A DNA stretch of 64,000 nucleotides from assembly GCA_964523705.1 (NCBI GenBank), contig CAZFYA010000001.1, positions 3,388-67,387 of the forward strand, given 5' to 3'. Below, one piece after another: positions 1,170 through 52,387 of this stretch. How positions within the stretch are numbered: the first letter of the stretch is position 1; the number at the start of each line of letters is the position of its first letter. Source of the DNA: an uncultured Gammaproteobacteria bacterium (lineage in GTDB: Bacteria > Patescibacteriota > Microgenomatia > Levybacterales > UBA12049). The notes under the pieces were generated by a model. That model did not search any database. It was given only the letters and a program-made list of their open reading frames with translations, and had not been told where the DNA came from. The position numbers and the translations under genes were made by a program.

Positions 1170-1909
1170 AGCTTATTTAAAGTATCCATATCGTTGTATG
1201 TATCCATGCAATACCAGAAATCATCATGTGTATAAACGGAAAGTTGTCCTTTTTTAGCCAATCTTTTTAATGCGTCATGTTCATACTCACCCGGATTAAA
1301 ATACTTAAAGGCCTCTCTTTTAAAAACCATAAATCCTCCATTTATTCTTTCTTTTAAAACCGGTTTTTCCATAAAACTTTCTACCCTTGATTTATTATTT
1401 ATTTTTAAAAGACCGTATTTACTTCTTGGGTGTACGCCTGCAACGGTTCCTATTGTTTTTTGTTTTTTATGAAAATTAATTAAATCTTTAATATTAATAT
1501 TTGATACGCCATCCCCATAAGTAACCATAAAGTGCTTATCTTCTTTTGGAATATATTTTTTAAGCTTTAATATTCTTTCGCCAGGAAGGGTATCCTCACC
1601 AGTATCAACAAATGTAATTTTAAAATGATCTGTTTTAGATTTGTCTTTTTTATGAAATTTTGTAAAGCCAGACCTTGTATGAAGAGTGAAATCATGAATA
1701 ATCTGATTTTGATTTAAAAAATACTGCTTTACATAATCACCCTTATACCCAAGCGCAATGATAAAATCATTAAAACCATAATGGGTATAAATCTTCATTA
1801 TGTGCCAGAGAATTGGTTTTCCACCTATATTAACCATTGGCTTTGGTTTAAATTCCGTTTCTTCTTTTAATCTATATCCAATACCTCCAGATAGAATTAT
1901 TGTTTTCAT
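1133..1909 (-). CDS. rfbF: Glucose-1-phosphate cytidylyltransferase
   Basis: Strong match to the RfbF/DdhA N-terminus: MKTIILSGGIGYRLKEETEFKPKPMVNIGGKPILWHIMKIYTHYGFNDFII; size 258 aa. Confidence 0.85.
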   Translation of the reverse strand: MKTIILSGGIGYRLKEETEFKPKPMVNIGGKPILWHIMKIYTHYGFNDFIIALGYKGDYVKQYFLNQNQIIHDFTLHTRSGFTKFHKKDKSKTDHFKITFVDTGEDTLPGERILKLKKYIPKEDKHFMVTYGDGVSNINIKDLINFHKKQKTIGTVAGVHPRSKYGLLKINNKSRVESFMEKPVLKERINGGFMVFKREAFKYFNPGEYEHDALKRLAKKGQLSVYTHDDFWYCMDTYNDMDTLNKLWKEDPKWKIWK

Positions 1910-1965
1910 AAAGTCCTTGCGTGTTTACAAAGATGTTTATATAATAATTAACAAAATAAATCAAC

Positions 1966-3180
1966 ATGGATTGTAAAAACGCGAAAATTAGAATCCCCTA
2001 TGCTTTATCTGTTTACGATGAAAAAGAGATAAAACGAGTAGAAAAAGTACTAAGAGAACACCGGTCCAATATGGGGATTGAAACCCAGGAATTTGAGAAA
2101 AATGTTGCTAAGTATTTTTGTAAAAAATATGGCATTATGGTAAACTCCGGCTCTTCTGCAAATCTTTTAGCACTAGAATTACTAAACTTACCAAAAGGAT
2201 CTGAAATAATAACCCCTATTCTTACTTTTTCAACAACCATCTCTCCGATGATTAAAAAAGGACTTGTCCCAGTTTTTATTGACGTTGAAGAAGGAAAATA
2301 TATAGTTAACGTAGATCAAATTGAAAAGCTGATTACAAAAAAAACTAAAGCCTTAATGATTCCTCTTCTTTTTGGAAATGTACCAGATATGGAAAAATTA
2401 GCAAAAATTGCTAAAAAGCATAATCTTTTCTTTATCGAAGATTCTTGCGACACTCTTGGCGCAAAATATAAGAATAAACCCACAGGAAAATATTCAGATA
2501 TCACAACCACGAGTTTTTTTGGATCGCATATTATTACAGCCGGAGGGAATGGAGGAATGATTATGGTAAATAATCCAAAATGGAGAGATAGACTTAAAGT
2601 ACTTCGCGGTTGGGGAAGAAGCTCTTCTATCTTTAGTGAATCTGAGGATATATCAAAAAGATTTAAAGCTAAACTTGGAAAAATTCCCTACGATGCAAAA
2701 TTTCTTTTTGATGAAATCGGATATAATTTTCTCCCTTGTGAAATTGGTTCAGCCTTCGGCAACGAACAGTTAATAAAATTGCCAAAATTCAGAAAAACAA
2801 GAGAAAAAAATTTCAAAAGATTATGTAATTTCTTTAAGAAATATAATAATTTTTTTATAATCCCCCAGCAGGACAAGTTAGTAAAAACACAATGGCTTGC
2901 GTTTCCTTTAACGATTAAAAAAAATGCTCCTTTTTCAAGAATAGAGATAACGACATATCTTGAAAAAAATAATACGCAAACAAGACCGGTTTTTACAGGA
3001 AACATTTTAAAGCACCCAGGTTTTAAAAAAATACCAAGAAGATTAAACCCTAAAGGATACCCTGTCGCTGATGAAATTACAAAACAAAGTTTTGTAATAG
3101 GCTGCCATCACGGAATGAAAGAAAAACACCTTAATGCACTTGAAAATCTTTTTGATAAATTTTTAGCGAAATATAACTAG
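1966..3180 (+). CDS. rfbH: DegT/DnrJ/EryC1 family PLP/PMP enzyme, likely CDP-6-deoxy-4-keto-glucose 3-dehydrase (E1)
   Basis: DegT-family fold (MVNSGSSANLLALE; SFFGSHIITAGGNGG). His occupies the position of the usual Schiff-base Lys (SFFGSH rather than SFHxxK), as recalled for E1 dehydrases (recollection, not alignment). Divergently adjacent to rfbF/rfbG. Confidence 0.55.
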   Translation: MDCKNAKIRIPYALSVYDEKEIKRVEKVLREHRSNMGIETQEFEKNVAKYFCKKYGIMVNSGSSANLLALELLNLPKGSEIITPILTFSTTISPMIKKGLVPVFIDVEEGKYIVNVDQIEKLITKKTKALMIPLLFGNVPDMEKLAKIAKKHNLFFIEDSCDTLGAKYKNKPTGKYSDITTTSFFGSHIITAGGNGGMIMVNNPKWRDRLKVLRGWGRSSSIFSESEDISKRFKAKLGKIPYDAKFLFDEIGYNFLPCEIGSAFGNEQLIKLPKFRKTREKNFKRLCNFFKKYNNFFIIPQQDKLVKTQWLAFPLTIKKNAPFSRIEITTYLEKNNTQTRPVFTGNILKHPGFKKIPRRLNPKGYPVADEITKQSFVIGCHHGMKEKHLNALENLFDKFLAKYN

Positions 3181-3920
3181 TTTTTTTTATTAAAAACTGC
3201 ATTTCCAAGCCTATATCTTACAAAAATATTTATCGTATCTATAAACATCCAAAATGCTACGTTTATAAAATTAAAATAATTTATAGAGCTTTTTTTTAAA
3301 TTTACATTAATCGGCGCTTCAAAAATTTTTACATATCCTAATTTTTTAGCAATAACTAAAGACTCTATATCGAATGCAAAACCGTTAATTGTAATCTTAG
3401 AAAAGATTTTTTTAGCTATCTCTTTTTTAAATAATTTAAAACCAGCTTGAGTATCCTTAATTTTTAAATCAAATAGCATTTGAATAATAAATCTGTATCC
3501 TTTTGATAAAACTTTTCTAAAAAACGGGTATTTTATTCTAGATTTTGGATGAACTTTACTCCCAACTACGATATCTGCATTGTTCTTATTCATAACAGAC
3601 AACATCGTTGAAATTTCTTTTGGATTTAAATCCATTCCCGCATCCATAAAGCCGACTATTTCTTTACTTGCCTTTTCAACTCCGTATTTAATAGCATACC
3701 CTTTGCCTTTATTTTTTTTATATCCAAAAAGTTTAAAATCAGCTGTTTTTATTTTTTGTGCTTCTTTAAAAGTATTATCATTAAATCCGTCTACCACAAC
3801 AATTATTTCAAAATCAGATGATATCTTTTTTAATGCATTTTTTATTTCTTTAACCTGCTTAATAATTGTTTTTTCTTCTTTATAAGCAGGCACTATAAGG
3901 GAGATTGATTTTGAAGTCAT
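3177..3920 (-). CDS. GT2 polyprenyl-phosphate sugar synthase (Dpm1/GtrB/ArnC-like), soluble type
   Basis: SLIVPAYKEEKTI...VVVDGFNDNT...MDAGMDLNP (DxD)...DTQAGFKLF, typical of dolichyl/undecaprenyl-phosphate glycosyltransferases; 247 aa with no C-terminal TM. Confidence 0.7.
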   Translation of the reverse strand: MTSKSISLIVPAYKEEKTIIKQVKEIKNALKKISSDFEIIVVVDGFNDNTFKEAQKIKTADFKLFGYKKNKGKGYAIKYGVEKASKEIVGFMDAGMDLNPKEISTMLSVMNKNNADIVVGSKVHPKSRIKYPFFRKVLSKGYRFIIQMLFDLKIKDTQAGFKLFKKEIAKKIFSKITINGFAFDIESLVIAKKLGYVKIFEAPINVNLKKSSINYFNFINVAFWMFIDTINIFVRYRLGNAVFNKKN

Positions 3921-3923
3921 AAA

Positions 3924-4475
3924 CTAATCATTATCAGCTAATGCCTTTCTGACTAAATCCCATGAAAATGGTGTTCCGTCAGAAAGTTTTACACCAACTT
4001 CACTAAAAGGTTTTCTTCCTTCTTCTTTAGGATTATACAGGGCTGTTGGAAAATTAAATAGAATTGCCGGTTCCTTTGAGCTAACTAAAAATGCATGATA
4101 TGTATTTTTTGGAATTAATAATAAATATGGATCCTCCAGTGCATTTATTCTAAAAAGATTAACTACATCTTTTGTCTCAGAATTTTCTCTCTTATCTGCG
4201 ATCGCAATTATTACCTCTCCCTGAATTACACCCATTCTGTCTTCCTGAACTGTTGGGTGAAAATGCCAAACATCTTCATCTCTTGCCATGCCTGGTGGGG
4301 TAACTGAATAATACTGCATTGCAAATTCTCTTCCTTTACCGTAAATATCAGGCCAATTGGTTTTTAAAGTCTCAACAAGTACTCCTGAATCATCCTTATT
4401 TACTTTAAGAGGATACATTATTACGTCTTTTATTATTTTTTTTGAGTCTTTATTTTTTAAAGTAATAAATTCCAT
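3924..4475 (-). CDS. RmlC-like cupin sugar-nucleotide 3,5-epimerase
   Basis: 183-aa cupin with WHFHP...QGEVIIAIAD core; sits inside the NDP-sugar module; specificity (dTDP versus CDP substrate) cannot be resolved. Confidence 0.5.
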   Translation of the reverse strand: MEFITLKNKDSKKIIKDVIMYPLKVNKDDSGVLVETLKTNWPDIYGKGREFAMQYYSVTPPGMARDEDVWHFHPTVQEDRMGVIQGEVIIAIADKRENSETKDVVNLFRINALEDPYLLLIPKNTYHAFLVSSKEPAILFNFPTALYNPKEEGRKPFSEVGVKLSDGTPFSWDLVRKALADND

Positions 4476-7857: not shown

Positions 7858-8624
7858 AAGATTAAGTATAATATATATGACACAGGAAATCTAAGAGCAG
7901 AAAATAAAGAAAAAACAAAACCAGCCCATAAATCCATAAACCCCTTATGCCTTATAAAGGTTAATAAAAACCAAAATATTGGCTTAATTAATAAATAATC
8001 AAAAAATGAAACGACTTTTAAGAAAATATTTTTCTTCGATTCTTTTTCTTTTATTTCCGCTGCAAATAAATTGTTATATAAATTCCATTTACTTAAATAA
8101 TGTTTAAAGTTTTTATATGGATAATGCAAAAGTGCACTCTTAAAATAACCTACTTTTCCATCTACTTCAGCTTGCTCGTGAACATCTTTTACAGGAAGTC
8201 TGCCTTTTCCTCTTTTATAAAATCTTAAAGTGTAATCAGGATATTGTCCGCCTTTAAGCAAGAACTTATGTATAAACCAATTTTTTCTCGGCATCCAATA
8301 TCCGCTAAATTCCTCACTCTCTTTTTTTAAAACCTCTTTTATCTCTTCTTTTAATTCTTTTGATACATGTTCATCCGCATCCATTTGCAATATCCAATCT
8401 TTAGTTGCCATATCAATAGCCATTTGTTTATTAATATGAAAATTAGGCTTATTAGTAGTTATTTTTACTTTTGCTTTGTACTTTTTTGCAATCTCTATTG
8501 TTTTATCAGTTGATGAACCATCAACAACAATAATCTCATCAGCAATATCTTTTAAACTATCAAGACAAGCGGCGAGATTTTTTTCTTCGTTATAAGTTGC
8601 TAGAACAACAGATAATGATTTCAT
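7854..8624 (-). CDS. GT2 glycosyltransferase, KdtX/LgtF-like
   Basis: LSVVLATYNEEKNLAACLDSL..DEIIVVDGSSTDKTIEIAKKY motif; paralog of 32580..33341 and 34257..35165. Confidence 0.7.
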   Translation of the reverse strand: MKSLSVVLATYNEEKNLAACLDSLKDIADEIIVVDGSSTDKTIEIAKKYKAKVKITTNKPNFHINKQMAIDMATKDWILQMDADEHVSKELKEEIKEVLKKESEEFSGYWMPRKNWFIHKFLLKGGQYPDYTLRFYKRGKGRLPVKDVHEQAEVDGKVGYFKSALLHYPYKNFKHYLSKWNLYNNLFAAEIKEKESKKNIFLKVVSFFDYLLIKPIFWFLLTFIRHKGFMDLWAGFVFSLFSALRFPVSYILYLIL

Positions 8625-8625
8625 A

Positions 8626-10263
8626 TTATGTGAATTTTCTTAATTTTATACTAAATAATACTACTATTGCCAGAAAAGATATAACGGATATCAAATTTGA
8701 AACTTTTCTTAGCTTTGTATCTTCATAAACAACTCTTACGTTATAACTTCCTTTATCTAAGTGAAAAGTCATAATTCCTCTGTATGTCATATTTTGAAAC
8801 TCTACATCAATTGGCTTATTATCAGCCGTTATCTTCCATCCCGGAAAATAAATAGTATTTTCCATAAATAAAGTATTCGTTCTTGCATCAATTTTATACA
8901 CATGCTCTGTGGTAGTTCTTTTTAATTCTAAAATGTCTGCATTACCATCAATAACCTCTAGGTGTGCCTTCGGTCTTTTTTCCATAAATCTAACAGACCA
9001 AATAGGAGAACTCTCCCCTGTATCTGTTGTACTCTCAAAAACACTTGTATAAAAAGACTCCGGTTTTATTAAGTATCCTTTTGGCTTCATATAATTTAAG
9101 CTTAATAAAAAAATAATTATCAACAAGAGTGGTATTATTATTTTTCTTAATTTTCCCTTTAGCAAAGAAACACTTAAAGCGCCAAGAAGAGAGGTAGAAA
9201 ATACAGTAATGGCTAAAAGCCTCCACGGAAATTGAAAGTTTTGCAAAACCATAATATTTCTCCAAATAAAATCAGATTCTTTTAACATCATAAATATTGC
9301 CACAAGCGAATACACTAATCCTCCTAAGAATAAATAGTAATTATCTTTTCTTTTCTTAAAAGAATAAAAAACAATAATTAAAGAGAAAACAATCGCTAAC
9401 CAATGAATCAAACCAAGCTGAAGAGTAAATTCTCCGGATTGACCATAACTCCATGGTCCATAAATTAAAGATTTAAAATCAACAAAGCGATTTACATATG
9501 TCCCTGAAGTTAGAACATTTCTTAAGGTATATTTTCCCTCAAAAAATGCAGGAACCCAAAAAAACGAAGATAAAGTAAAACCTAGTATGATTGAAAATCC
9601 TAATTTTACAATATATGATTTTTTAAATTTTAATTTTGACCAAAGAAAAATTCCATAAAATATTATAAAGGGCAAAAAGATTAAACTTAGAGCATTATGA
9701 GATAAAACCAAAAAAGCAAAAGATATTCCTAGAAATATCGAGTAAATATAATTTTCTTTCTTAAATAATTTATAAGTAAAATATAAAACCAAAGGTAACC
9801 AAATAAATGCAAAATTTTCCCCTATTGCTCCCCTAACATAAAGATCGACAAATCTATAGGGGGCATAGACATAAAGAACAGCACCAAAAACAGAAGCATC
9901 TTTTTTTAAAAATTGAGACAACCAAAGATACATAAAAATTCCTGATAGAAAAAAACCAAGCGCAAAAATAATTTTCGTTGAATCAACAAAATTAAAACCT
10001 ATTAAATGAAAAAATGAAGCAAAATATGAAGGTAGCGGATATAAAAACATTAAAATAGGATGCCCATATCCCCAATTAAGATTTCCTGCCCAACGAGGAA
10101 TAATATTCCCCTCAGATAAACTCTGATAAAAGTTAGCTATTCTTGCTACATGATCTCTTCCATCATGAGTATATGGTAATCCTTGATTTAACAACGAAAT
10201 AAGCGGAATAAGTAAAAATAAGACTAATACAATAAGCAAAAATTTGTTTTTAAACTTAGTCAT
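8626..10263 (-). CDS. Polytopic membrane protein, YfhO-related GT-C-like (family C, HD...FPxRW motif)
   Basis: 545 aa. N-terminal YTHDGRDHVARIANFYQSL...IPRWAGNLNWGYGHPILMFLYPL; C-terminal YFPGWKITADNKPIDVEF beta-sandwich motif shared with YfhO proteins; paralog of 37322..38803 and 39331..40860. Confidence 0.5.
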   Translation of the reverse strand: MTKFKNKFLLIVLVLFLLIPLISLLNQGLPYTHDGRDHVARIANFYQSLSEGNIIPRWAGNLNWGYGHPILMFLYPLPSYFASFFHLIGFNFVDSTKIIFALGFFLSGIFMYLWLSQFLKKDASVFGAVLYVYAPYRFVDLYVRGAIGENFAFIWLPLVLYFTYKLFKKENYIYSIFLGISFAFLVLSHNALSLIFLPFIIFYGIFLWSKLKFKKSYIVKLGFSIILGFTLSSFFWVPAFFEGKYTLRNVLTSGTYVNRFVDFKSLIYGPWSYGQSGEFTLQLGLIHWLAIVFSLIIVFYSFKKRKDNYYLFLGGLVYSLVAIFMMLKESDFIWRNIMVLQNFQFPWRLLAITVFSTSLLGALSVSLLKGKLRKIIIPLLLIIIFLLSLNYMKPKGYLIKPESFYTSVFESTTDTGESSPIWSVRFMEKRPKAHLEVIDGNADILELKRTTTEHVYKIDARTNTLFMENTIYFPGWKITADNKPIDVEFQNMTYRGIMTFHLDKGSYNVRVVYEDTKLRKVSNLISVISFLAIVVLFSIKLRKFT

Positions 10264-46788: not shown

Positions 46789-46862
46789 GCCGCCATCGTC
46801 TAGTGGCCCAGGACGTCACGTTCTCAACGTGAAGATCGCGGGTTCGATTCCCGCTGGCGGTA
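46789..46862 (+). tRNA. tRNA-Glu (anticodon CUC)
   Basis: Cloverleaf by hand: acceptor GCCGCCA/TGGCGGT (G1-U72 wobble), D-arm GTCT-AGTGGCCCA-GGAC (Glu-type), anticodon stem TCACG/CGTGA with loop TTCTCAA, T-arm GCGGG-TTCGATT-CCCGC, discriminator A; no encoded CCA. Confidence 0.8.
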
Positions 46863-46864
46863 CT
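46835..46864 (+). repeat. 30-nt tRNA-Glu 3' end, left copy of direct repeat (att-like)
   Basis: ATCGCGGGTTCGATTCCCGCTGGCGGTACT recurs exactly at 47518..47547. Confidence 0.85.
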
Positions 46865-46895
46865 ATACAACAAAATAACATGAAAATAATTACTC

Positions 46896-47444
46896 TTAAT
46901 CTGATGAGTGGTGTTCTGTTATCTCCCTGCCTGTAACTATCTTCTGTTCTCTAGCAAATGGTGGTATCTCAAAAGCGCTCGGAGGATAGAGAGAATGAGT
47001 TGTACCACCTTGACTTCTCATTTCTTGTTCACGTTCTTCTTCTAGCTTTCTTAATACAGTATGAATAGTGCTATCAATTATTTTAAAAACATTATCTATG
47101 GTTAAATCCTCTCCTCCTTGCATGGATCTAATTTTATTAAACCGAGCCGTAACTGATGATTCACTTGTTAGATAGCTACCGTATATCTCTTCAAGCTTAT
47201 CTCTTCTTTCTGGTTCTCCTTTTAAACGATGATCTATATACCAGTATTCTCTACTGAGCGCATCAAGTCCTTTATACAATGCACTTTGAAACACTTCATA
47301 TTGCAACCCAACAAGCTCTATTTGAGCTCTAGATCCTTGTGTATCTATTTTTCTAAGCGTTTTATGAAACGTATCTCTATTAAATATACACACTAAACCA
47401 GAAACTGCTTGCTCCATCGGATAGTAACTTGGTCTTTCTACCAT
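46896..47444 (-). CDS. Hypothetical protein (182 aa) on a GC-richer islet between the tRNA-derived direct repeats
   Basis: Codon usage visibly less AT-rich than its neighbours; own TTGACA-N17-TATATG promoter; no recognisable domain. Confidence 0.45.
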   Translation of the reverse strand: MVERPSYYPMEQAVSGLVCIFNRDTFHKTLRKIDTQGSRAQIELVGLQYEVFQSALYKGLDALSREYWYIDHRLKGEPERRDKLEEIYGSYLTSESSVTARFNKIRSMQGGEDLTIDNVFKIIDSTIHTVLRKLEEEREQEMRSQGGTTHSLYPPSAFEIPPFAREQKIVTGREITEHHSSD

Positions 47445-47517
47445 ACTATAATTTTCAATCTACATATATCAAATTGCTATTTTTTTGTCAATATTTGTTT
47501 TATTTACAAATATAAAA

Positions 47518-47547
47518 ATCGCGGGTTCGATTCCCGCTGGCGGTACT
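47518..47547 (+). repeat. Right copy of the 30-nt tRNA-Glu 3'-end direct repeat
   Basis: Exact 30/30 match to 46835..46864; ends at the lon stop codon. Confidence 0.85.
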
Positions 47548-49922
47548 TAATCTGCTTTTTGAGGTACCTGCGCATGAAGAACTTGAGGTTGAAAAATCTC
47601 TTCTTTGATTTTTACTTTTGGTAATTGTCTTTTTAGGGCAAGTCCTAAAACTTCATCCATGTGAGTCACAAATTTAAAGTTTAAATCTTTTAATACTTCT
47701 TTTGGAACATCTTCTAAATCTTTTTTATTGTCTTTTGGTAGAATTATTGTCTTAAGACCGGCTCTATGAGCAGCAATAACTTTTTCTTTAATTCCACCAA
47801 TCTCCAAAACTCTTCCTCTTAAGGTAACTTCTCCTGTCATACCAACTTTTCTATTAGCCGGTATTTTAGTTAAAGCTGAAACAATTGCAGTTGTAATTGC
47901 CGTTCCGGCACTGGGTCCATCTTTTGGAACAGCGCCTTCCGGAACATGAACATGAACATCCATTTTTTGATAAAACTTATCGGCAAGACCTAAGCTCTTT
48001 GCTCTTGCTCTAATATATGACATTGCAGCAGTACAGGACTCTTTCATAACATCTCCTAATTGTCCTGTTAAAATAAGGTTTCCTTTACCCGGCATTAGAG
48101 CTACCTCGATAAATAAGATATCTCCCCCTGCTTCTGTCCAAGCAAGTCCTGTTGACATGCCAACTTCATCTTTTTTCTCAGCTATTGTTGCATTGAATTT
48201 AACCGGGCCTAAAAACTTTGGTACTATCTTTTCTGTTACATTTACTTTTTTCTTTTTCCCCTCAGCTACCATTTTGGCTACTTTTCTAAAAATCGCTGAT
48301 ATTTGCCTCTCTAAACTTCTAACTCCGGCTTCTCTTGTGTAATGCTGAATAATAAATTTAATAGCACCATCTGTTAAGTTTACAGTTTTCTTATTCAACC
48401 CATGGTTTTCCATTTGTTTTTTAAGTAAAAAGTCTTTGGCAATTCTAAATTTTTCATCATGGGTATATCCTGAAAACTGGATAACCTCAAGCCTATCTTT
48501 TAAAGCCGGTGGAATTGTTTCTAGGATATTTGCAGTTGTAATAAACATGGCATCGGATAAATCAAAAGGAACCTCTAGGTAGTGATCTGAAAACATGTTG
48601 TTTTGTTCAGGATCTAGTGCTTCTAAAAGAGCAGATGATGGATCTCCTCTAAAGTCTGTTCCAACCTTATCTATTTCATCAAGCATAAAGACCGGATTTT
48701 TAGCTTCTGCGTCCTTAATTCCCTGGATAATTCTTCCAGGCATTGCCCCAACATAAGTTCTTCGATGTCCTCTAATTTCTGCTTCGTCTCTAATTCCTCC
48801 CAAGGACATCTTTACAAACTTTCTACCCAAGGCTCTGGCAATAGATTTTCCAATTGAGGTTTTTCCAACTCCAGGTGGTCCTGTAAAACAAAGAATTGGT
48901 CCTTTCATTTTACCGGCTAACTTGTGAACCGCTAAATATTCAACTATTCTTTCTTTAACTTTTTTAAGACCAAAATGATCCTCATCTAAAATTTTTTCTG
49001 CCTGTTTAATATTTAAGTTACTTTTTGTTTCAACTGACCAGGGGAGACTCAACACCCAATCCAGGTAGTTTCTAATATATCCTGCTTCAGGATTAAACTG
49101 ATTCATCTGAGACAATTTCTTAATTTCTTTTTTCATTTTTGTCTCAATGTCCTCTGGCATTTTTGCCTTTTTTACTCTTTCTAAGAGTTCTCTAACCTCA
49201 CTGTCTTCCTCTCCTTCACCCAGTTCCCTTTCAATAGTTTTTAGTCTTTCCCTAAGCAAAGCCTCTTTTGCTCCTTTTTCAAACCTTTCCTGTGTTTTTG
49301 AGGCAATCTTTTTCTCAAGTTCTAAAACCTTTATTTCCTTGGATAAGTAAGTTATTAATTTACCAAGTCGTTTTTTAGTATTTACTTCTTCTAAAAGCTC
49401 TTGCTTTTCAGAGGGTTTTAAATCAAGAACAGATGAAACAAGGTTTGCCAGCTGTTCAGGGGTATTTTTAGACATTACATTCATAAAAACCAAAAAATCA
49501 ACAAATTTTCCAAGATTCATTGCTTTTCTGAATTCATTTGTTAAATGGTTGCAAAGTGCTTTTATTTCAGGGCTATTGGTAATAATGTCTGGCACTTCAA
49601 CAACTTTTGCTAAAAGAAAAGGGGCTTTTTGTTCATATGAAACTATTTTAACTCTGGATAATCCTTTTACCTGAGCATTTATTTCCTGATCAGTTTTTAT
49701 CATTCTTTCAATGTGTGATAAGGTTCCTATTTCATAAAGATCAGATACTTCAGGATCATTTAGTCTTGGATTCTTCTGGGCTACAAAGCCGACAATTCTA
49801 TCCTGTGAAAATGCAGCTTCTAAGGCTGATAAGCTTTTGGGTCTTCCAAAGGTTAAAACTGAATCTGTATTTGGAAAGATTATTCCGTCTCTAATTGGAA
49901 TTATTGGGATTATTTTCTCCAT
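47547..49922 (-). CDS. lon: ATP-dependent Lon protease
   Basis: N-terminal LON substrate-binding domain; Walker A GPPGVGKTSIGKSIA; catalytic PKDGPSAGTA serine motif; 791 aa. Confidence 0.95.
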   Translation of the reverse strand: MEKIIPIIPIRDGIIFPNTDSVLTFGRPKSLSALEAAFSQDRIVGFVAQKNPRLNDPEVSDLYEIGTLSHIERMIKTDQEINAQVKGLSRVKIVSYEQKAPFLLAKVVEVPDIITNSPEIKALCNHLTNEFRKAMNLGKFVDFLVFMNVMSKNTPEQLANLVSSVLDLKPSEKQELLEEVNTKKRLGKLITYLSKEIKVLELEKKIASKTQERFEKGAKEALLRERLKTIERELGEGEEDSEVRELLERVKKAKMPEDIETKMKKEIKKLSQMNQFNPEAGYIRNYLDWVLSLPWSVETKSNLNIKQAEKILDEDHFGLKKVKERIVEYLAVHKLAGKMKGPILCFTGPPGVGKTSIGKSIARALGRKFVKMSLGGIRDEAEIRGHRRTYVGAMPGRIIQGIKDAEAKNPVFMLDEIDKVGTDFRGDPSSALLEALDPEQNNMFSDHYLEVPFDLSDAMFITTANILETIPPALKDRLEVIQFSGYTHDEKFRIAKDFLLKKQMENHGLNKKTVNLTDGAIKFIIQHYTREAGVRSLERQISAIFRKVAKMVAEGKKKKVNVTEKIVPKFLGPVKFNATIAEKKDEVGMSTGLAWTEAGGDILFIEVALMPGKGNLILTGQLGDVMKESCTAAMSYIRARAKSLGLADKFYQKMDVHVHVPEGAVPKDGPSAGTAITTAIVSALTKIPANRKVGMTGEVTLRGRVLEIGGIKEKVIAAHRAGLKTIILPKDNKKDLEDVPKEVLKDLNFKFVTHMDEVLGLALKRQLPKVKIKEEIFQPQVLHAQVPQKAD

Positions 49923-51784: not shown

Positions 51785-51812
51785 ATTATATCATTTTGAG
51801 ACTAATCCGAAG
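51785..51812 (-). promoter_or_regulatory. Perfect TATAAT -10 placed 6 nt upstream of the ATG at 51778, with the AGCTTCGGATTAG motif in the -35 region
   Basis: Minus strand reads GCTTAGCTTCGGATTAGTCTCAAAATGATATAATTATCCAATG. Confidence 0.5.
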
Positions 51813-51855
51813 CTAAGCATGTCGGTCAAGACCCATTCAGTCGTTATAAACTTCC

Positions 51856-52251
51856 CTATGGTGTTAAGCGAAAGCTAACTCTTATTCCATTCCATCTCCT
51901 TGGTCCTTTACTGTACTTTTTAACATCTGATCCTTCATATATTACTTTATCTTTTATGATGGGGACATCTGTTTCTATGTGGGATTCTAAATCTTTAGAA
52001 CCAAGGAAAGGTATTTTTGTTAAGCTCATATCCCAAGCTTCAGGAGAAGCTTCTTGAACAAATTCGTCTGCGTAAATTCCACTCGTAATTTCAATAGAAT
52101 TAGATGGTGTTATCTTAATATAAACATATTTCTTTTCCGTACCAGGACTTCTTAAAAGTAGAGGAGGATGTGATAATTCTTCGCCATAACCAACGTCACA
52201 GTTTGTCCTTTTTACAGGAATTCCTAAAAAATCTACTCGTCTTTCAATCAT
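51856..52251 (-). CDS. Hypothetical protein (131 aa); start trimmed to the internal Met because the upstream part of the six-frame ORF is tRNA-Gln
   Basis: Consensus TTGACA-N17-TATAAT promoter at 52270-52298 sits between tRNA-Gln and the ATG at 52251 (MIERRVDFLG...). Confidence 0.5.
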   Translation of the reverse strand: MIERRVDFLGIPVKRTNCDVGYGEELSHPPLLLRSPGTEKKYVYIKITPSNSIEITSGIYADEFVQEASPEAWDMSLTKIPFLGSKDLESHIETDVPIIKDKVIYEGSDVKKYSKGPRRWNGIRVSFRLTP

Positions 52252-52269
52252 AGAACAAGATATTAAAGG

Positions 52270-52298
52270 ATTATATGGTAATAAAAAAATGGTGTCAA
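52270..52298 (-). promoter_or_regulatory. Consensus sigma70 promoter TTGACA-N17-TATAAT immediately downstream of tRNA-Gln
   Basis: Minus strand reads CAGCTTGACACCATTTTTTTATTACCATATAATCC...ATG at 52251. Confidence 0.6.
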
Positions 52299-52316
52299 GC
52301 TGAAGATAATCCGAAG

Positions 52317-52387
52317 CTGCGGAGCAGGGATTCGAACCCCAATACCGACATTCAGAGTGTCGTGTCCTACCATTAGACGACTCCGCA
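52317..52387 (-). tRNA. tRNA-Gln (anticodon CUG)
   Basis: Minus strand TGCGGAGTCGTCTAATGGTAGGACACGACACTCTGAATGTCGGTATTGGGGTTCGAATCCCTGCTCCGCAG: U1-A72 and G73 (Gln identity), anticodon loop CTCTGAA, T-loop TTCGAAT; T-stem has two G-U pairs. Confidence 0.7.

Follow-up and report, generated by a model that had tools for sequence, protein, structure and literature searches.

The window, 64 kb of a contig of the metagenome-assembled genome (MAG) type from an uncultured Levybacteria bacterium (Patescibacteria, also known as the candidate phyla radiation, CPR), contains at positions 46789-47547 an intact tRNA-Glu(CTC) gene and a small islet located between it and the lon protease gene. The islet is bounded by exact copies of the tRNA 3' end, occupies a junction that is empty in other species and a recurrent insertion hot spot in this group, and encodes a single protein without relatives, ORF182, while the same tRNA allele is the attachment site of recombinase-bearing elements in other contigs. 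Judging from the footprint, the islet very probably entered the 3' end of tRNA-Glu through site-specific recombination. It is probably a relic of such an integration at the Levybacteria hot spot, lacking an integrase and similar to cis-mobilizable elements (CIMEs).

Structure of the islet

The tRNA-Glu(CTC) gene (46789..46863, plus strand) is recognized as intact by ARAGORN and Rfam (RF00005, 64.4 bits) and would represent the attL side of the islet, that is, the regenerated target; CCA is not encoded at its 3' end. The left copy of the direct repeat (46835..46864, plus strand) consists of the last 29 nt of the tRNA gene and one additional base, and comprises ATC from the variable loop (3 nt), the T-arm, the 3' acceptor strand and the discriminator, then C and T. 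The right copy (47518..47547, plus strand), identical to the left one, is the displaced 3' fragment of tRNA-Glu at the putative attR side. It adjoins the lon gene (47547..49922, minus strand; Pfam domains Lon_C, LON_substr_bdg and AAA), which forms the conserved flank.

The exact recurrence stated in the sequence-only reading of this DNA was confirmed. The repeat sequence ATCGCGGGTTCGATTCCCGCTGGCGGTACT has exactly two occurrences on the plus strand in 64 kb, while none of 100 shuffled sequences contained any match with at most three mismatches. The exact repeat is 30 nt long, the flanking bases being different at both copies, and it can be extended to 33 nt at 97% identity. Its right copy indeed abuts the lon stop codon, as had been claimed: the last T of the copy is the third base of the TAA. 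This copy is not called as a tRNA by either ARAGORN or Rfam.

The insert between the copies (46865..47517) is 653 bp long, or 683 bp as an inserted unit counting one copy of the repeat. It has no DNA or translated similarity to any of 80 lon loci (see below) or to the rest of the window. No inverted repeats were found at the insert termini, the best pairs being internal or reaching into the flanks. An insertion sequence (IS) or a miniature inverted-repeat transposable element (MITE) was rejected as an explanation, since terminal inverted repeats are lacking and a duplication of 30 nt exceeds the usual target-site duplications.

Synteny, empty sites and the insertion hot spot

The Lon protein was used as the query to collect 80 lon loci, the majority of them from MAGs of Candidatus Levybacteria/Levyibacteriota. 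The Lon homologues are 56-93% identical across this set and about 70-93% identical among the Levybacteria-type loci. A tRNA-Glu(CTC) gene is located within 6 kb downstream of lon in 36 loci, and in most of these 36 it is followed by homologues of the GT2 glycosyltransferase and of the 390-aa and 510-aa membrane proteins of the window. The order lon, tRNA-Glu, GT2, membrane proteins is kept across dozens of Levybacteria species, and thus is the ancestral arrangement. The tRNA-Glu allele of the window is found unchanged in L002 and L010 (76/76 identical). Most of the variation is observed in the stretch from the lon stop to the 3' end of the tRNA, and several loci also contain an additional 1.5-5 kb between the tRNA and GT2.

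Two loci represent empty sites. Their flanking genes are the same, and only 4 nt (L013) and 1 nt (L068) separate the intact tRNA-Glu from the lon stop. In the window, the 30-nt fragment is 0 nt from the lon stop, at the position equivalent to the tRNA end in L013 and L068, and the intact tRNA sits 683 bp beyond it. This is the geometry expected if recombination between attB and attP regenerated the tRNA (principle in PMC4383910). Hence the comparison of relatives bears out the footprint of integration into a tRNA gene proposed from the sequence: empty-site variants do exist, no related genome carries the 653-bp interval, and the same attB is used by recombinase-bearing elements (L083 and L087, see below).

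The empty sites also bear on the possibility that the right copy is a tRNA pseudogene, left from an ancestral tandem of tRNA-Glu genes beside lon after an unrelated insertion or deletion had replaced the 46 nt at the 5' end of the copy nearer to lon. Tandem copies do occur at this locus: L026 (9646-9805) has two tRNA-Glu(CTC) genes 11 nt apart. Moreover, tRNA copies turn over here, as seen in L024, where the fragments at 8372-8384 and 9510-9539 have an acceptor stem of the GCCGCCA type, while the intact tRNA-Glu (9579-9652) is another allele (GGCGCTA), which suggests that the resident tRNA-Glu was replaced by an incoming copy. However, the tandem genes of L026 have just 22 identical nt in common, while in the window the 30/30 match breaks off sharply, and nothing resembling the 5' part of the tRNA is seen to the left of the right copy. 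In the empty sites one single tRNA adjoins lon at the position of the fragment, and the same architecture is seen in other species with varied repeat lengths, as expected from different att cores. The pseudogene explanation is therefore less parsimonious and quite improbable.

Occupied gaps between lon and the tRNA range from 241 to 4542 bp in other loci, and their contents are unrelated between species. All-against-all BLASTP of the ORFs (open reading frames) downstream of lon leaves 193 of 291 as singletons. The 76 ORFs located within the lon-tRNA gaps have matches to 62 Pfam families, e.g. GNAT, AhpC/thioredoxin, Vut_1, DUF2079, GIY-YIG, Fic and CopG. The cargo differs even among the window and its nearest relatives: L078 (Lon 93% identical) encodes a ParE toxin along with a protein of 282 aa that has no relatives, and L069 (Lon 89% identical) encodes a DUF2079 protein and a 117-aa protein. 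The lon/tRNA-Glu junction is thus a recurrent insertion hot spot in Candidatus Levybacteria.

Traces of the tRNA are frequent at this hot spot. Fragments of the tRNA-Glu 3' end of 11-13 nt adjoin the lon stop in L008, L022 and L024. Inserts between tRNA-Glu 3' repeats can be very short, with 101 nt in L001 (21-nt repeat), 142 nt in L059 (20-nt repeat) and only 37 nt in L024. The islet of L072 (9214-9667), 364 nt long with a 17-nt tRNA repeat, carries a 103-aa GIY-YIG gene (Pfam) as its sole cargo. GIY-YIG-like ORFs also adjoin the 5' end of tRNA-Glu in L082 (2422-2754, confirmed by Pfam) and L090 (528-779, by sequence resemblance only).

Recombinases at tRNA 3' ends

The scans for recombinases covered the window and 96 loci. 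In agreement with the initial claim that no integrase remains, no recombinase was detected in the window: Pfam yielded no recombinase domain in the 10 ORFs flanking the islet, and the hidden Markov model (HMM) of large serine recombinases had no match in the whole 64 kb. No XerD-like tyrosine recombinase was found in the window or the 96 loci either, which is a weak negative, as the seed sequence was approximate.

The situation is different in related contigs. The last 29 nt of tRNA-Glu were used to scan metagenome contigs, which yielded ten loci, while viral contigs gave no exact match. In L083 (19-1641), the same tRNA-Glu allele is directly followed by a gene for a 540-aa large serine recombinase (domains Resolvase, Recombinase, Zn_ribbon_recom). 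Read as its reverse complement, the tRNA supplies the last 12 codons of this gene and its stop. The element is approximately 9.6 kb long and ends in the 12-nt repeat CTGGCGGTACAA, preceded by a degenerate T-arm. Similarly, L087 has a recombinase gene (2390-3031; HMM E = 2e-21) that runs into this tRNA-Glu allele. A large serine recombinase is thus present at this allele in L083 and L087, while it is absent from the att site of the window.

The arrangement is seen at other tRNA ends as well. A homologue in L018 (1656-3095, stop-to-stop frame 1548-3197) reads into tRNA-Gln. The L083 recombinase alone, as a query of IMG/VR, gave no match, while a two-sequence recombinase profile gave four loci, in one of which (L096, an IMG/VR contig) a distant homologue (about 2822-4393) ends in a tRNA 3' fragment. 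The recombinases of L083 and L087 are a lead on the mechanism, not evidence of class membership for the islet in the window.

ORF182, the cargo gene

ORF182 (182 aa; 46896..47444, minus strand) is the sole ORF between the repeats. It points toward the tRNA, whose end is 32 nt away from the ORF182 stop codon. The longest run without a stop has 187 codons, compared to 67 +/- 17 (maximum 182) in 5000 shuffles, and G+C in the three codon positions is 0.49/0.38/0.22, compared to 0.49/0.33/0.24 in lon. Because of this run length and of the lon-like codon positions, ORF182 looks like a real gene.

The description of its product as an orphan stands. Its sole match in 5.8 billion clustered proteins and in 1.84 billion representatives (full HMMER on the latter) is ORF182 itself, which rules out a conserved core gene. 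Degenerate-pattern scans of IMG/VR and of JGI metagenomes revealed no homologues, nor did tblastn against phages and plasmids. No family match was obtained in Pfam, PHROGs, PADLOC or NCBIfam, and none among PDB sequences. There is also no tblastn match in the loci L001-L090, and no similarity to the 182-aa neighbor in L091. A single-sequence AlphaFold2 model of ORF182 is mostly helical, with a C-terminal tail without predicted structure, and is unreliable (mean predicted local distance difference test, pLDDT, 48).

The location of ORF182 might suggest a role as a novel recombinase or integration factor of very small size that inserts its own gene at the tRNA end. It is the sole gene between the repeats and lies beside attL, pointing to the tRNA as does the recombinase gene of L083; its size is within the range of small serine recombinases. 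Still, it matches neither Resolvase nor Phage_integrase nor anything else in Pfam, PHROGs, NCBIfam, PADLOC, PDB or the large-serine-recombinase HMM, and its low-confidence model consists mainly of helices and a tail for which no structure is predicted. A self-mobilizing gene should, moreover, have relatives, and none were found, so this explanation is less parsimonious and hardly credible.

The visibly higher G+C content initially ascribed to the islet was confirmed only in part. The insert has 33.2% G+C, compared to the window mean of 30.1% (standard deviation, SD, 3.0), but 17% of windows of the same size reach that level. Among the 54 ORFs of the window, over which the gene statistics were taken, ORF182 has the joint highest total G+C (36.6%) and the fourth lowest synonymous-codon score (about -1.6 SD), while its G+C in third codon positions (GC3, 0.225) is ordinary, with rank 17 of 54. 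Since GC3 is ordinary, the impression of a GC-richer islet reflects amino-acid composition. Third-position G+C being host-like, G+C was ruled out as a sign of foreign origin; either ORF182 came from a donor just as AT-rich, or it has been in the host long enough to adapt.

The composition is also relevant to the possibility of an assembly artefact, such as a chimeric join or a loop at the shared 30-mer in a metagenome contig. ORF182 is recorded in only one 252-kb MAG-type contig of NCBI, and exact-protein lookup found no independent contig encoding it. However, common assemblers finish with k-mers longer than the 30-nt repeat, and both junctions would need to be wrong at the same 30-mer. Third-position G+C of the insert and, to a lesser extent, its codon usage fit the host. 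Analogous structures are found in independent assemblies, and the neighboring islet at tRNA-Gln (see below) is reproduced in the independent Logan contig L092. A misassembly is thus less parsimonious and extremely unlikely.

Upstream of ORF182 there is a promoter-like stretch (47445..47492, minus strand), defined by consensus matches only. The consensus scan identified the hexamers TTGATA-N16-TATAGT (47472..47445) between the ORF182 start and the right repeat. The promoter proposed earlier, TTGACA (47492..47487)-N17-TATATG (47469..47464), is present in the sequence and is a second candidate, but it fails the consensus scan, the final T being absent. Promoter-like sites are not enriched around the islet (7, compared to 5.4 +/- 2.0 in shuffles). 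ORF182 is probably transcribed from its own promoter.

A related observation concerns translation starts in the window. A Shine-Dalgarno-like motif precedes just 9 of the 54 ORFs, and a TATAAT-like box ends 6-9 nt before the start codon in many genes (e.g. 44754, 46738, 51778). The scarcity of the former and the proximity of the latter to the starts suggest that leaderless or very-short-leader mRNAs are common in this genome and may be normal there.

The second islet and the possible mobility of single-gene units

The window has only two intact tRNA genes, tRNA-Glu and tRNA-Gln (ARAGORN, Rfam). tRNA-Gln(CTG) (52316-52387, minus strand) is directly followed by a 504-bp insert, the islet spanning 51803-52318 and the insert being flanked by a 12-nt direct repeat AGCTTCGGATTA (52307-52318 and 51803-51814). 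The insert has a perfect TTGACA-N17-TATAAT promoter (52298..52270) and a 130-aa ORF (51856-52248, minus strand) without family matches. In L069, the closest relative with the tRNA-Gln region, the site is empty: tRNA-Gln is directly followed by TTCGGATTAGCCTCAAAATGATATAATT. Therefore, both tRNAs of the window carry a single-gene insert at the 3' end. ORF182 and the ORF of the tRNA-Gln islet are not similar. The latter has a single homologue among the 5.8 billion proteins (P0003, 55% identity), encoded in L091 (1312-1882; Logan contig ERR10755943_1636940), where it adjoins tRNA-Gln on the 5' side, in the inverted orientation, with the same perfect TTGACA-N17-TATAAT promoter. Sequencing run SRR10812145 contains the tRNA-Gln region of this strain.

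The pair of islets raises the possibility that ORF182 belongs to a still-mobile minimal cassette, comprised of attP, one gene and its own promoter, and moved in trans by a recombinase encoded elsewhere, such as a large serine recombinase from an element that is resident or infecting, as a tRNA-end analogue of integron cassettes. The unit is complete and compact, with 100% identity between the copies of the tRNA-Glu repeat; large serine recombinases are found at this attB in L083 and L087; the single-gene, direct-repeat-bounded insert at the only other tRNA of the window has an empty site in L069, and the GIY-YIG islet of L072 has the same architecture. On the other hand, a mobile cassette should recur, while neither ORF182 nor the insert was found a second time in any collection searched. 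No recombinase was detected in the 64-kb window, the two islets share no sequence and have no visible similarity of end sequences, and the 37-142-nt inserts of L001, L059 and L024 resemble products of erosion. A cassette that is still mobile is thus unlikely. The choice between a decayed element and a very small cassette had been left undecided by the sequence-only reading; decay is favored, because the unit is unique, no recombinase was detected in 64 kb, and the relatives contain a continuum of shrinking inserts.

A more general scheme would be integron-like gene capture based on tRNAs, in which single genes (ORF182, the 130-aa ORF at tRNA-Gln and the GIY-YIG gene of L072) are inserted in trans by large serine recombinases whose genes overlap the tRNA-derived att cores. 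We regard this scheme as rather improbable. If true, it would contradict the statement made in 2014 that only tyrosine recombinases are known to target tRNA genes (tDNAs) and serine integrases are not so known (PMC4383910).

Proposed origin of the islet

The preferred explanation, an integration relic, would imply the following events. A circular element with an attP site holding a copy of the last ~30 nt of tRNA-Glu would have recombined with the chromosomal tRNA-Glu (attB), which originally adjoined the lon stop. The predicted empty attB is CAACGTGAAG-ATCGCGGGTTCGATTCCCGCTGGCGGTACT-TAATCTGCTTTTTGAGG, and the predicted junction of the circle, attP, is TTGTTTTATTTACAAATATAAAA-ATCGCGGGTTCGATTCCCGCTGGCGGTACT-ATACAACAAAATAACATGAAAATAATTAC. 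The crossover would have rebuilt the tRNA (46789-46863) and shifted the 3' fragment of 30 nt to a place beside lon, at the opposite end of the element (47518-47547). The recombinase was probably of the large serine type, as at the same attB in related contigs, though a tyrosine integrase is also possible. Its gene would have been lost since then, probably by internal deletion, the remainder being one lineage-specific cargo gene, ORF182. Both repeats would have survived because an outward deletion would damage either lon or the tRNA, which is presumably needed, so that only internal deletions are tolerated.

Several observations weigh against this explanation. Neither a recombinase nor an excised circle nor a second copy of the element was found in the searches described, so that the integration is deduced from its footprint. 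Composition does not prove that the DNA is foreign, the third-position G+C of ORF182 being host-like. The empty sites come from other species (lon 79% identical) rather than from strains of the same one. The arms beside the repeats have no similarity to the L083 element, and therefore the parent element is not identified. Sites of large serine recombinases typically share few bases, and identity over 30 nt is commoner with tyrosine integrases (also PMC4383910). Finally, a tidy set of a promoter, an ORF and short flanks is not an obvious outcome of random internal deletion.

Other features of the window

The T-arm of the displaced tRNA fragment (GCGGGAATCGAACCCGC), followed by GATTTTTATA, forms a terminator-like hairpin just downstream of lon (47511..47537, minus strand; consensus scan). 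A terminator role, which could be proposed for it from its position, was rejected as a finding: it is a consensus match only, and the fold is weak and not significant (-11.7 kcal/mol, z = -1.3).

On the other side of the tRNA, nearly all ORFs over about 46 kb (186-46738) are on the minus strand, and many of the encoded proteins are ~500 aa long. The last few minus-strand ORFs before the tRNA encode glycosyltransferase membrane proteins of the GT2, GT87-like and PMT-like types. This region may be a large cell-envelope glycosylation cluster.

Discussion

The islet is a usual scar of site-specific integration, unusual only in its tiny size and in the missing integrase. As in the tDNA islands identified by Islander (PMC4383910), the insert is bracketed by an intact tRNA and, on the same (plus) strand, a cognate 3' fragment identical to it in 30 of 30 positions, and the identity block begins at the T-stem region, as in 1836 of 3919 islands in Islander Table 1. 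In attB sites of tRNA genes, the common core by which the tRNA 3' end is restored typically measures 25-76 bp (PMC8092301), and the 30-nt core is within this range. As is also usual for tDNA islands, there are relatives, here of different species (L013, L068), in which the element is absent and the tRNA is uninterrupted. Unlike such islands, the islet contains no integrase gene, ORF182 having no recombinase domain, and it consists of 683 bp with one gene, compared to multi-gene islands of kilobase length; moreover, the recombinases at this attB in the relatives are of the large serine type.

Described CIMEs appear much larger than the islet. The likeness to CIMEs from streptococcal loci of ICEs (integrative and conjugative elements) and IMEs (integrative and mobilizable elements) is in the retention of two perfect repeats, putative attL and attR, with no recombinase or transfer gene, and in the location, namely the 3' end of a target gene within a locus of element accretion and decay (PMC5704250). 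The differences are that no related functional parent is seen, as the islet has no similarity to L083 or any other element, although the eroded inserts of L001, L059 and L024 fit decay, and that the host is a CPR bacterium, in which conjugation machinery is not in evidence.

Like integron cassettes, the islet is a single-gene unit, apparently site-specific and without its own recombinase, and different single-gene units occupy equivalent sites. Unlike them, the repeats are direct tRNA-derived copies rather than imperfect palindromes of the attC type, the units appear with their own promoters, and there are no arrays; no IntI was detected, though by a weak test. With neither an attC site nor an IntI/attI platform apparent, identity with an integron cassette was rejected.

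The IntP protein of Mx8 is a tyrosine integrase. Its gene provides an analogous example of attP within int (PMC4383910), the arrangement seen in elements with large serine recombinases that use the same attB (L083, L087) or the same kind of attB (L018, L096). The islet shares the attB with the former, unlike which it has no recombinase gene, a 30-nt repeat rather than 12 nt with a degenerate T-arm, and unrelated arms.

The more interesting leads are the hot spot found throughout Levybacteria, the islet at tRNA-Gln, and the serine recombinases overlapping tRNA 3' ends. If confirmed, the reading of serine recombinase genes into tRNAs would widen the target range of this family and provide simple new attB/attP pairs. 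The islet marks a phylum-wide lon/tRNA-Glu hot spot, with turnover of accessory genes in very small CPR genomes and entry of lineage-specific genes without relatives. Both Islander and TIGER require an integrase by design (PMC4383910, PMC12424338); island finders of this kind miss such islets, and hence gene flux in reduced genomes may be underestimated.

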